Sequence record: MT764206.1
From: Escherichia phage JEP6
Length of the DNA stretch: 64,000 nucleotides
Reading direction: 5' to 3' (one strand)
The notes below the pieces were generated by a model. The model was not told the DNA's origin and did no database searches. It saw only the letters and a program-made list of their open reading frames with translations. Shown here in pieces: positions 1 through 48,909 of this stretch (the first letter of the stretch is position 1; each line of letters starts with the position of its first letter). The translations under genes and the position numbers were made by a program.

Positions 1-587
1 AACCGCAACACATGGAATATTTTTAATGCTAAAATAAGGAGTAACAATACGGAATAATGACTTCAGTGATTTAGCACGAGTCATATCTGCCACAGATTTT
101 TCATTCAAGGCATCTTCCGTTTCTTTCTTAGAAGCCATATTACCAATTGAGTCGATGAATACAATAACCTTTTCACCACGCTCAATAGCTTCAAGCTGAT
201 TCACCATATCAATTTTCAGTTGTTCAACTGACTGGATTGGCGTATGAATTACTCGTTCTGGGTCAACTCCCATGGATCGCAAATAAGCTGGAGTAATACC
301 AAATTCGCTATCATAGAATAGACAAACCGCGTCAGGATATTTGTTCAAATATGCCGCAACCATAGTCAAAGACATATTTGATTTAAAGTGTTTAGAAGGC
401 CCTGCAAAAATAGTTAAACCAGACTGCATACCGCCATCAATCGCACCAGAAATAGCGATATTAAGCATTGGAATTTTTGTACGAATTACATCCTTTTCAT
501 TAAAGAATTTAGATGTAGTCAGCTCAGCAGTCATTTTAGAAGTGGAAGCTTTAATTAAACGGGATTTTAAATCTGCAATAGACATTC
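1..587 (-). CDS. uvsX: UvsX recombinase (RecA-like), N-terminal part; C-terminus lies beyond window start
   Basis: Reverse complement of 1-587 translates MSIADLKSRLIK...GPSKHFKSNMSL (P-loop); ATG at 585-587. Confidence 0.9.
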
Positions 588-662: not shown

Positions 663-1505
663 TTAATCAACTGCTATTGGATGAATAGCATTAAACTTAT
701 GAAATGCTTCTGATTTTTCTTTACGCGAAACACACATGCGAAGAACCTTTAGTGGTTCATCTTCTTCACCCAACGATTTTCGTTTTTCAATATTTGAAGT
801 TTTCCAACGAGCTTGCTCTGGAAACTCTCTATTGATTTGCTCAAGCGCTCTATTATGTTTAGAATTACTACGAATTGAACTACACCCACCGGGAGCGTGT
901 GATTTTCCAGATACAACTAGATATTTGAACAAGGCCAAATGCGGATAACCTTGATTAATTAAATTGAGAAATGCATACATATCTTCGCATAAATCAATTT
1001 TTCCATACCCAATTTGTTCTGTCGTAAGTTTTCCGAGGTCATACCATGTATTCGTGAATCCATATGAGTTTTCACGATAATTACCCCAAGATGAAGTAAT
1101 TTTAAAAATTGGTAGACGAGCATGACCGTGATAATACCCGCAATCCATGGCATCTTCAACGTATTGAATTAATTCATAGAACTGTTCACGAGTTAATTGA
1201 TTAATTTTATCTACACGCCGTTTATCGTCTCTCTTTCGTATTGAACTCATACGAATAGTAGTATCATCATCAATCATCCAGATTCGTTGACCTGCATACA
1301 TATCAGTAATTGCTTTACGAGTACCGGCAATTCCATTAACATCATCAGGAATAGTTACAATTTTAGCTCTAGACCCGTAAGCATCATAATAAGCTTTTTC
1401 TTCGTGTTCACGCACTACAATATGGGGTTCATAATCAGTCGGAAACATATTAAGGGCAGAAACTGCCCCTACACGCTGATAACTTGGAATTACGAATTGA
1501 ATCAT
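663..1505 (-). CDS. Putative DNA glycosyltransferase at the beta-gt locus (not the 351-aa T4 beta-gt; possibly T2/T6-type beta-glucosyl-HMC-alpha-glucosyltransferase)
   Basis: About 280 aa between uvsX and gene 42; IWMIDDDTT DXD-like motif; ATG at 1503-1505 overlaps gene 42 stop (ATGA); track start at 1511 is GTG. Confidence 0.6.
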   Translation of the reverse strand: MIQFVIPSYQRVGAVSALNMFPTDYEPHIVVREHEEKAYYDAYGSRAKIVTIPDDVNGIAGTRKAITDMYAGQRIWMIDDDTTIRMSSIRKRDDKRRVDKINQLTREQFYELIQYVEDAMDCGYYHGHARLPIFKITSSWGNYRENSYGFTNTWYDLGKLTTEQIGYGKIDLCEDMYAFLNLINQGYPHLALFKYLVVSGKSHAPGGCSSIRSNSKHNRALEQINREFPEQARWKTSNIEKRKSLGEEDEPLKVLRMCVSRKEKSEAFHKFNAIHPIAVD

Positions 1506-2242
1506 TTCCACTCACCGTTATAATCTTTTTTCACAATATGAGTTTCGCCAGTATTCCACCAATGATCAACCAAGTAAAAATGACGAGAATATACATGAAG
1601 ACTTCCAACATTCCATATAATAGAACCTGCTTTATACTGACGAGTTGAATCGCCTGCATTCAAATCAGATACTAATTTATCTAATACGTATTTTTGCCAT
1701 GCATAATCATTACGGAATCCGAAGACCACGTCATTTGAGCGCATGTTAACAACCGCATTGACTTTCTTATCACGAATCAGGTACTGTACTGTATTAGTAC
1801 ACATGAAATCTGACATACCATCTTTATTGTAGTCAAATTGCATGGATGGACGAGTATAAATCATGATACCACGTCGAGAATCAGGATTTTGACCAAGTTC
1901 AGCTAAACACATATCATACTGGGCATAGTTATCTTCTGACCAGATAGCCCAACCATAATTCGAGTTAATTTCACCTTTAGAAGATGCTACCTGCTGCCAA
2001 ATCTTCGGTGTTTCACCTGGAATATCTTTAACAAACAGACTTTGAGACTTATACCATTCAAGTTCACGCTGAATGTATTCATCATTAAGAGCGCCAAAAA
2101 TAAACGGTTCATCTGCTACAAATGATGCGCCAATAATTTCAATAGTTTTAACGCCAGTTTTATCAACTACGAAATCTTTTTCCTTTAATGCAAGCCCCAA
2201 ATGAAGACGGATTTCTTCAACTGTCATAGAGTCACTAATCAT
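1502..2242 (-). CDS. 42: dCMP hydroxymethylase
   Basis: 246 aa MISDSMTVEEIRLHLG..., near-identical to recalled T4 gp42 except the C-terminal residues; thymidylate-synthase fold family. Confidence 0.95.
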   Translation of the reverse strand: MISDSMTVEEIRLHLGLALKEKDFVVDKTGVKTIEIIGASFVADEPFIFGALNDEYIQRELEWYKSQSLFVKDIPGETPKIWQQVASSKGEINSNYGWAIWSEDNYAQYDMCLAELGQNPDSRRGIMIYTRPSMQFDYNKDGMSDFMCTNTVQYLIRDKKVNAVVNMRSNDVVFGFRNDYAWQKYVLDKLVSDLNAGDSTRQYKAGSIIWNVGSLHVYSRHFYLVDHWWNTGETHIVKKDYNGEWK

Positions 2243-2395
2243 TTAAACCTCAATTGATACATTCATATTTAACTTGTAACAGTAATAAACCCCAACCTAA
2301 AATAATAGTTGGAATCATAAGAGGAACCGTTACACTATAGTATATACTTATTATAACCATCAAGATTAAAAGCAATGCTGTTATAATTTTGCTTT

Positions 2396-2647
2396 TCATT
2401 CCTTCTCTCTGATGATAATTACCTGATTTGGCTGCGCAGACTTTTTAGTTTCACCCGCAATTGACCAAATAAATGTAATAAACCAACCAATAATTGACCA
2501 GTTAAACAGTAAAGATGTGAAAAAGATTCCTACTGTCGATTTTGACCCACGCATCAAGGCGATAAACCATGGAAGCATGTATATAATAATAGCCAACACG
2601 CCTGAAACTAAAACCATAAAAATTGAACCTGCTACTAAAGTTTCCAT
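2396..2647 (-). CDS. imm: Immunity to superinfection membrane protein
   Basis: 83 aa with two hydrophobic helices, at the position between 42 and 43. Confidence 0.7.
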   Translation of the reverse strand: METLVAGSIFMVLVSGVLAIIIYMLPWFIALMRGSKSTVGIFFTSLLFNWSIIGWFITFIWSIAGETKKSAQPNQVIIIREKE

Positions 2648-3045: not shown

Positions 3046-3303
3046 TCAAATACAAGTAGTAATTACTCCAGTAGTGCTTACACAGATATTACCTAATTGA
3101 ACACCCAGCGTTCCATTAGTATTCATATGAAGATTATCATCAATTTTTGTTGATACTTTACCATTCATGTGAATAACAGTATTAGATTCAATCACATTCT
3201 GAGTGTCATTTTCAATATCAATAAATGGAACAGCTGCTAATGCAACTAGAACAACTGCTAATGCAACTAAACACGCTGCTAAACAACCATAAACAATTTT
3301 CAT
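3046..3303 (-). CDS. Small secreted/membrane protein
   Basis: ATG at 3301-3303 with GGAGAAT SD; hydrophobic N-terminus; track start at 3315 is TTG. Confidence 0.5.
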   Translation of the reverse strand: MKIVYGCLAACLVALAVVLVALAAVPFIDIENDTQNVIESNTVIHMNGKVSTKIDDNLHMNTNGTLGVQLGNICVSTTGVITTCI

Positions 3304-3336
3304 TTTATTCTCCAAATCCGTATCAGTTGATAGTTG

Positions 3337-3367: not shown

Positions 3368-3457
3368 GGTTTTGTGAAAAAATTTTTTTAATGAATTTAC
3401 AGGACCTAGAATCATCTGTTTTTCATAAGTATAGATTTATATTACTTGTATGAAAAA

Positions 3458-3473
3458 GGGACCCGGAGGTCCC
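3458..3473 (-). terminator. GC hairpin 3' of gene 43
   Basis: gggacccggaggtccc palindrome directly after the gene 43 stop codon. Confidence 0.5.
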
Positions 3474-3486
3474 TAGATTTATTCTA

Positions 3487-12896: not shown

Positions 12897-12914
12897 AAAG
12901 GGCCGAAGCCCTTT
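12897..12914 (-). terminator. C(UUCG)G hairpin at the alpha-gt stop
   Basis: aaagggccgaagcccttt. Confidence 0.55.
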
Positions 12915-14115
12915 ATTTTGTAATAATGTCAAACTGTTCTTTAAAGCAGAAGCTTGAATCTTGGTGCTGATACAAAAATTCATATGCTTTTTCTCGCTCA
13001 CGGTCATAAAGAGCTCGGTCAGATGACAGTTCTTTAATACGCTCGAATGTTGATTCCATGTCATTTTCATCAAACCAAATGATACCACTATCATGCGAGG
13101 TCAAAGGAGTATTATCAACACGGAATTTTAAATTATCACCCGTTGATTTCCAAAATACCGGAATTGTACCGCAAGCACCTAATTCAAGATGAGTATATTC
13201 GAGTGAGCGTTGTAAGTATTTCTGGTTAAGTTTACTCAACTGATATCCAAAGCCAGATTTACTCATTCGTTCAAGCATTTCACTATTAATATAACAATCT
13301 AGGATTTGTGCCGGTTGATTCGGCGTGAGATTCATTTTATCAATCTCACGATTACCATAATATTCATACGGAATACCTTTTTCCTTAATTGCAATAAAAG
13401 CAGGGGAACGTTCAAGACCTTCCATTACAGTGGATTTACCAGCAGGTTTTAAGAATTTTTCGTGAAAATCAAACATCTGATAAAAACCTTTCCATGTAGT
13501 CGTACGACCAATCCAACGGTTGATGTTCATGTTAATTTCAGAAACATCTTTCCAATAAGTTGACCGAACCTTCACAATATCCATAGGAGGCTGAAAATTA
13601 TATACTGTTGGTGCTTCTTCAATATCATCAAACAGAGAAACAGTTTCTGGATACCATTCTTTCATCAGAACTTTATTAAAATCGCCATTATCAGAATGAC
13701 TAAAAATAACATCAGCTCGACGAACAGTTTCTTCTAATCCCAAATTTCGACGCAAAGAAAGCACAGAATGATCATGCTGATAAACTACAACACGAATAGA
13801 AGGTTTAATATTATCTAAAAGTTTTTTATAGTTATTAATCGTAGCTTCTTGAACGGAAGTAGCAGGAACAGAATTAATAATTAGAATATCACAATCATTT
13901 ACCAGCTTAAGTGCTTTATCGTATTCTTTAGCTAAAATAACTGGAATTGAAAATGATTTGTGGTCATGAGAACTTGTACGAGTAAATGATTTATCTTTAG
14001 CATAAACCAAAGTTACTTCATGACCATTTTTAATAAACCAATCACGCTGCTCAAGAGAAAATTTAGTTACACCGCAACCTTCAAGACCCCGAGCCAGAAA
14101 AATGCATACTTTCAT
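12913..14115 (-). CDS. agt: DNA alpha-glucosyltransferase
   Basis: 400 aa M(K/R)VCIF(L/M)ARGLEGCGVTKFSLEQRDWFIKNGHEV..., recognised as T4 AGT. Confidence 0.92.
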   Translation of the reverse strand: MKVCIFLARGLEGCGVTKFSLEQRDWFIKNGHEVTLVYAKDKSFTRTSSHDHKSFSIPVILAKEYDKALKLVNDCDILIINSVPATSVQEATINNYKKLLDNIKPSIRVVVYQHDHSVLSLRRNLGLEETVRRADVIFSHSDNGDFNKVLMKEWYPETVSLFDDIEEAPTVYNFQPPMDIVKVRSTYWKDVSEINMNINRWIGRTTTWKGFYQMFDFHEKFLKPAGKSTVMEGLERSPAFIAIKEKGIPYEYYGNREIDKMNLTPNQPAQILDCYINSEMLERMSKSGFGYQLSKLNQKYLQRSLEYTHLELGACGTIPVFWKSTGDNLKFRVDNTPLTSHDSGIIWFDENDMESTFERIKELSSDRALYDREREKAYEFLYQHQDSSFCFKEQFDIITK

Positions 14116-48243: not shown

Positions 48244-48909
48244 TTAAAATTTCATTTTTCGACCTTTAAACCATCCTTCTGGAATTGGGTCAGTTTTCTT
48301 AATACGTTTAGAAACTTTTTCATCTAATGAATGAATCCACATCATACCAAATTGGGAATTCTTTTCGCCCTGTTGGTGTTTATTTCTGGCGTGAGATTCT
48401 TTCATTTTATTAATAGTTTCAGGAGTATGATGCTTATTTAAAAATCTGCTATTATTTAAAAATTTTTCCCTGTATTCAGGAGTTGACCACAAGCGTTTAA
48501 ATACATTTGAACCATGTTTACGATATTTTTCTTGAAGTAAAATATCATTTTTAAAACGTGACTTAAACGATTTAGCTCCTTTTAAACTAGCGTCTTTCTT
48601 CTGGTTTAGCATCCCAGGAATATTTATATGATCCCATCCACCTTCACCACCTAATTTCAAATTATAAACATCAGGGCGCTTTAAAAACTCTTCAGTCACA
48701 ATATTCTTTTCTGACTCAAACATAGAGGTTTTATCGTCAAAGAACTCTAATATTTCTTTAGAAAAATTTTCTATACCATACTTATCTTGGGCTCTTTTTA
48801 ATAATTTACCAGAACCCATATATCCATCATCTAAATTTTCGGTAGAATGCACACCAATATAAATTTTATTATTAATTTTATTTGTTATTTTATAAGTGTA
48901 ATGGAACAT
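48244..48909 (-). CDS. segB: GIY-YIG homing endonuclease (SegB-like) in the tRNA cluster
   Basis: HYTYKITNKINNKIYIGV GIY-YIG motif; 221 aa. Confidence 0.8.
   Translation of the reverse strand: MFHYTYKITNKINNKIYIGVHSTENLDDGYMGSGKLLKRAQDKYGIENFSKEILEFFDDKTSMFESEKNIVTEEFLKRPDVYNLKLGGEGGWDHINIPGMLNQKKDASLKGAKSFKSRFKNDILLQEKYRKHGSNVFKRLWSTPEYREKFLNNSRFLNKHHTPETINKMKESHARNKHQQGEKNSQFGMMWIHSLDEKVSKRIKKTDPIPEGWFKGRKMKF

Follow-up and report, generated by a model that had tools for sequence, protein, structure and literature searches.

A T2/T6-type ggt gene very probably occupies the beta-glucosyltransferase locus of Escherichia phage JEP6

The reading frame that lies between gene 42 and uvsX in Escherichia phage JEP6 is very likely the ggt gene (also called ba-gt or g-gt) of a T2/T6-type Tequatrovirus, whose product adds a second glucose to glucosylated phage DNA. 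The analysis covered a window of 64,000 nucleotides from sequence record MT764206.1. The gene is a non-homologous occupant of the locus that holds the beta-glucosyltransferase gene (beta-gt) in T4, and its product uses another acceptor. The identity with the T2/T6 enzymes, the synteny, the protein family, the fold class, the conservation of a sequence motif and the absence of beta-gt from the window all bear on this assignment, and nothing contradicts it. The gene, its product and its distribution have already been described and are textbook knowledge; the finding is typical of the genus and holds nothing new for biology. The features discussed are collected in Table 1.

Table 1. Features of the JEP6 window, with positions counted from its first nucleotide
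Feature	Positions	Strand	Product or role	Basis or remarks
ggt (ba-gt), probable	663..1505	minus	beta-glucosyl-HMC-alpha-glucosyltransferase; TAGT family, GT-A fold; 280 aa plus stop	
DxD-type motif in ggt	1263..1271	minus	GATGATGAT, encoding D79-D80-D81 (M-I-D-D-D-T-T)	Read from sequence
Gene 42	1502..2242	minus	dCMP hydroxymethylase; makes the hmC precursor	Pfam Thymidylat_synt (PF00303); annotated in T2, T4 and F1
uvsX, 5' part only, runs off the window	1..585	minus	Downstream neighbour of ggt	Sequence; synteny with F1, T2 and T4
alpha-gt	12913..14115	minus	DNA alpha-glucosyltransferase; makes alpha-glucosyl-hmC, the acceptor substrate of ggt	Identity with T4; Pfam PF11440, 859 bits
Small ORF between imm and gene 42	2250..2399	minus	49 aa, very hydrophobic (MKSKIITALLLILMVIISIYYSVTVPLMIPTIILGWGLLLLQVKYECIN)	ATGA overlap with the TGA of imm; AAGGA just upstream
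Small ORF between imm.1 and gene 43 (DNA polymerase)	3046..3315	minus	78-89 aa, N-terminal hydrophobic segment	

The similarity of the protein to the T2 and T6 enzymes extends over its full length. It is identical to the ggt product of T2 (MH751506) at 270 of 280 positions in a gap-free alignment and is 96% identical to the T6 homologue, and in both phages the gene occupies the same position and overlaps gene 42 by the same 4 nt. The only Pfam family matched at E <= 1 is the TET-associated glycosyltransferase family (TAGT, PF20691), with a score of 40 bits (gathering score 27.5) over profile positions 2-205 of 205. The protein also matches PHROG 842 ('beta-glucosyl-HMC-alpha-glucosyltransferase') with E = 5.9e-88. 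Its length is that of the T2 enzyme (280 aa; 279 in T6), and the partner genes alpha-gt and gene 42, the DxD region and the GT-A class are shared as well. The differences consist of point substitutions and of a one-codon deletion in the DDD run of T6 that is absent from the window. Similarity, family models, a GT-A fold with a DxD motif and gene context all place the protein with the T2/T6 TAGT enzymes, and the T2/T6-like character suggested in an earlier note on this DNA is supported.

The gene is intact and its start can be placed. The frame is uninterrupted on the minus strand, and the ORF listing and the raw sequence give exactly 280 aa from the ATG at 1505. The earlier note had described a protein of roughly 280 aa between uvsX and gene 42 without mentioning the strand, and this description is borne out. 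The ORF listing gives 663..1511 (minus), a longer ORF of 282 aa initiated by GTG, which was rejected as the true gene. The ATG at 1505 is preferred because it is the annotated start in T2, T6, SG1 and F1, because GGTGAG precedes it, and because it forms ATGA with the overlapping TGA of gene 42, which lies upstream. Codon differences from other ggt genes are mostly synonymous (34 synonymous and 10 non-synonymous relative to T2, 13 and 1 relative to EL), which shows purifying selection: ggt is functional, and its frame is no product of chance.

The neighborhood of the gene is also that of the T2/T6 type. The gene order 43 - imm.1 - imm - 42 - ggt - uvsX - 40 - 41 is found in T2, T6, Salmonella phage SG1 and Escherichia phage F1. 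In the window ggt directly follows gene 42, a spacer of 77 nt separates it from the start of uvsX downstream, and alpha-gt is present in the same genome. The product of alpha-gt is identical to that of T4 at 395 of 400 positions (99%), so that the gene was rightly called canonical. T4 has the homing endonuclease gene segA between beta-gt and uvsX, whereas no segA was found between ggt and uvsX in the window. The sole segA-like tblastn match in the window lies at about 48637..48906 (minus) and is 54% identical to T4 SegA, a GIY-YIG homing endonuclease (90 aa). Judged by this similarity, a putative seg-like gene or remnant sits elsewhere in the genome, away from uvsX. A promoter consensus scan near ggt gave 15 promoter-like sites against 14.2 expected from shuffled sequence and gives no information on T4 early or middle promoters. 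Hits of a terminator consensus scan near ggt fell within coding sequence, except for a hairpin at 3457-3474 upstream of the ORFs on the imm.1 side.

Two small ORFs are found in the same region. The first, between imm and gene 42, has an unbroken frame that recurs with 88-98% identity in T4, T2, T6, SG1 and F1, and it is annotated in none of those records. Between its two allele groups synonymous and non-synonymous changes are about equally frequent, and the replacements are all conservative hydrophobic swaps. It is plausible that this ORF encodes a small membrane protein. The ORF between imm.1 and gene 43 is 97% identical in SG1 and 73% identical in F1, where the hydrophobic segment has a 7-aa deletion; tblastn did not find it in the fetched T4, T2 and T6 loci. 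T2 has a different ORF of 83 aa at this place, annotated as RB51ORF048. The interval between imm.1 and gene 43 looks like a variable slot for small genes.

The DDD motif that was pointed out in the earlier note is real and conserved in the family. D79, D80 and D81 are all invariant in a 10-sequence family alignment, down to a member that is 31% identical. A search of PDB sequences found no solved relative at E <= 1, and therefore the fold class was taken from a model, which was predicted from a 10-sequence homologue alignment reaching 31% identity. The model has a fold of the GT-A glycosyltransferase type and is of moderate confidence overall (mean pLDDT 68.7, pTM 0.70), with values of 83-94 in the first 80 residues and below 50 in loops 125-151 and 194-210. 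Named under this fold are chondroitin synthases, WrtF, PglH-like AvpGT, TarP, TarS, GlfT2, hyaluronan synthases and SpsA. The DDD motif comes after strand 74-77 in the model, where the pLDDT is about 85. D79-D81 are predicted to bind the metal and UDP-glucose, and the invariant pair E174-D175 is predicted to act as the catalytic base of an inverting GT2-like mechanism. In the ggt gene of T6 (L005:3001-3840) a GAT codon has dropped out of the GATGATGAT run, which leaves DD for DDD; its enzyme still makes about 72% gentiobiosyl-hmC, and therefore the third aspartate is dispensable. The GAT triplet repeat is a possible slippage site.

In contrast to its relationship with the T2 and T6 enzymes, the protein is unrelated to T4 beta-gt in sequence and family. 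BLASTP against T4 beta-gt (from NC_000866) gave a best E of 4.1, and tblastn over the whole 64-kb window found no T4-type beta-gt (E > 4), in agreement with the earlier note, which had seen no resemblance to the N-terminus of T4 beta-gt. T4 beta-gt scores 325 bits on PF09198, whereas the window protein has no match to that family in the Pfam scan at E <= 1. The T4 enzyme (PF09198, CAZy GT63) has a GT-B fold with two Rossmann domains, and ggt belongs to the GT-A class (PMC13216743). The acceptor of T4 beta-gt is bare hmC and that of ggt is alpha-glucosyl-hmC, and the lengths are 351 aa and 280 aa. The two are alike in the slot that they occupy, downstream of gene 42 and upstream of uvsX, and in their role as UDP-glucose-dependent DNA glucosyltransferases that form a beta linkage after alpha-gt has acted. 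The alignment that had been proposed as a check thus runs full length to the T2/T6 enzyme and not to T4 beta-gt, and the model has a glycosyltransferase fold. The record of RB55 (KM607002) gives the name 'beta-glucosyl-HMC-alpha-glucosyl-transferase' to a gene that matches T4 b-gt with 100% identity, an error through which annotations could be wrongly passed from one of these unrelated enzymes to the other.

The gene 42 product makes hydroxymethyl-dCMP, and hmC is incorporated at replication. In the pathway proposed for the window phage, gp42 would supply hydroxymethyl-dCMP for incorporation by the phage polymerase. The product of alpha-gt, encoded 11 kb from ggt, would add an alpha-linked glucose to part of the hmC, and ggt would then move a second glucose from UDP-glucose onto the first in beta-1,6 linkage to give gentiobiosyl-hmC. 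With no T4-type beta-gt, about a quarter to a third of the hmC would stay unglucosylated and no beta-glucosyl-hmC would be formed. The catalysis by ggt and the effect of its deletion are taken from the literature on near-identical enzymes and would hold here by analogy. In that literature, alpha-GT glucosylates about 70-75% of hmC and ba-GT then adds the beta-1,6 glucose (PMC11078745; PMC13216743; bioRxiv 10.64898/2026.02.25.707755). In T6 lacking ba-gt only alpha-glucosyl-hmC was reported; the Brig1 glycosylase can degrade the DNA of this mutant, whose sensitivity to Brig1 is increased (PMC11078745). The BapA deglucosylase likewise acts on DNA of the mutant but not on that of wild-type T6 (bioRxiv 10.64898/2026.02.25.707755). 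The Tequatroviruses of the Durham Collection have alpha-GT and TAGT but no beta-GT, and HPLC/MS of their DNA found 5-hmdC, alpha-glucosyl-hmdC and alpha-gentiobiosyl-hmdC and no beta-glucosyl form (PMC13390438).

The proportion of gentiobiosyl-hmC differs among phages that carry ggt. EL, BGP and Geo have hmC, alpha-glucosyl-hmC and gentiobiosyl-hmC in a ratio of about 1:2:2, and TB37 and six others have about one-third hmC and two-thirds gentiobiosyl-hmC (PMC13390438). In T2 gentiobiosyl-hmC amounts to only about 5% (PMC11078745). The extent of gentiobiosylation is not readable from sequence, as near-identical enzymes are found with 5% (T2), about 40% (EL, Geo) and about 70% (T6, TB37), and the term 'T2/T6-like' itself spans very different outcomes, from about 5% in T2 to about 72% in T6. 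The window enzyme is identical to those of EL and Geo at 279 of 280 positions, with one private change, D19N, and it has eight differences from that of TB37. Because only one residue separates it from the EL and Geo enzymes, a mixed pattern like theirs is the best-supported prediction. By analogy, the DNA of the window phage would contain about 20% hmC, 40% alpha-glucosyl-hmC and 40% gentiobiosyl-hmC.

The sequences of the enzymes fall into alleles that parallel part of this variation. The window, EL and Geo enzymes have V50, I89, K95, R97, I101, S202 and H203, where those of T2, T6 and TB37 have I50, M89, R95, C97, V101, A202 and Q203. The only differences between the T2 and TB37 enzymes are R11H and P251S, which are present in two independent T2 records (L002:3001-3843 and L010:3283-4125). 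Across the family alignment R11 does not vary and P251 hardly does, and the window protein has both. The substitutions suggest that T2 carries a hypomorphic ggt allele (R11H, perhaps P251S), with a low gentiobiosyl level. On the same reading, the window/EL/Geo allele may give about 40% conversion and the TB37/T6 allele near-complete conversion, and R11H, possibly together with P251S, may cripple the T2 enzyme; the long-known contrast between T2 (5%) and T6 (72%) would then be accounted for. That natural ggt alleles, and not other phage factors, set the fraction of alpha-glucosyl-hmC converted to gentiobiosyl-hmC is possible but rather doubtful. Phages EL and Geo also show other differences in gene content (PMC13390438), and the relation between allele and fraction is therefore given here as an association. 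The length of the aspartate run, DDD or DD, was rejected as the cause of high or low gentiobiosylation, as TB37 has DDD and a T6-like pattern (PMC13390438).

It is improbable that the window phage behaves like T2, with a few per cent of its alpha-glucosyl-hmC converted, DNA that is in effect alpha-glucosyl-hmC and bare hmC, and a restriction sensitivity that is barely altered. The T2 enzyme is 96% identical to that of the window and yet yields about 5% gentiobiosyl-hmC (PMC11078745), and the level is not fixed by sequence alone. However, the window protein lacks the T2-specific R11H and P251S, the first of which alters a residue that is invariant in the family, and it is identical at 279 of 280 positions to the EL and Geo enzymes, which are found with about 40% gentiobiosyl-hmC (PMC13390438). 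The EL/Geo-like mixture is the preferred prediction. A TAGT with another sugar donor or acceptor, as has been proposed for solitary TAGTs in phages that have neither alpha-GT nor beta-GT, is very unlikely. The family is diverse, with many members in genomes that have no alpha-GT or beta-GT (PMC13216743), and the Pfam score of 40 bits is modest; however, the protein is 96-99.6% identical to enzymes whose product has been characterised, and alpha-gt is present in the window. A functional analogue of T4 beta-gt, which would attach one beta-glucose directly to the hmC that alpha-gt does not reach, is hardly credible despite the shared locus and the interchange of names in some database records (RB55 b-gt), since T2, T6 and the Durham phages with ggt have no beta-glucosyl-hmC and 25-33% bare hmC (PMC11078745, PMC13390438), deletion of ggt from T6 leaves alpha-glucosyl-hmC (PMC11078745), and ggt and T4 beta-gt are unrelated in sequence and fold.

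The gene ggt is the usual occupant of this locus in T4-like coliphages, and T4 is the outlier. In a megablast search, 474 records of phages of Escherichia, Shigella, Yersinia, Salmonella and Citrobacter contained ggt with a nucleotide identity of 90% or more. A tblastn search with ggt gave 688 records, among them T4-like phages of Klebsiella and Enterobacter whose homologues have about 64% identity. T4-type beta-gt at at least 90% protein identity is found in 29 records, many of which are T4 itself or near-clones of the RB55 type. In a 2026 survey alpha-GT and beta-GT occurred together in 6 of 753 phages, and most genomes paired alpha-GT or beta-GT with TAGT (PMC13216743). The earlier note had treated the enzyme as unusual; in Tequatrovirus it is rather the common state, and that of T4 is rare. 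The TAGTs of CC31 and of Klebsiella and Citrobacter T4-like phages resemble ggt in family, in sequence (64-65% identity over 99% of the length) and in their location beside gene 42. They differ in having a beta-gt homologue (about 49% identical to that of T4) directly beside the TAGT gene, whereas the window has no beta-gt, and because of this homologue the acceptor in CC31-type phages may be beta-glucosyl-hmC. In the Tequatroviruses vB_EcoM-G3F8 (MZ234036) and vB_EcoM-PM123, a beta-gt homologue 55% identical to that of T4 adjoins a ggt that is 97.5% identical to that of the window. These two phages have a third arrangement of the locus, with TAGT and a beta-gt-like gene adjacent.

The predicted composition of the DNA of this phage, with bare hmC, alpha-glucosyl-hmC and gentiobiosyl-hmC and no beta-glucosyl-hmC, bears on how the phage would behave toward modification-dependent defences. 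The resistance of gentiobiosyl-hmC extends to the Brig1 glycosylase, as seen in vitro (PMC11078745), and to the BapA deglucosylase (bioRxiv 10.64898/2026.02.25.707755), but not to GmrSD-type enzymes, which still cut it (PMC13216743, PMC13390438). The leftover bare hmC would be a target of McrBC and of Brig3-type glycosylases. Recognition of the gene as ggt is useful for annotation and for the choice of phages for therapy. If natural ggt alleles do set the fraction of gentiobiosyl-hmC, the ratio would be a tunable form of bet-hedging against defences directed at alpha-glucosyl-hmC (Brig1, BapA/Brig3) and those that cut gentiobiosyl-DNA as well (GmrSD/BrxU).
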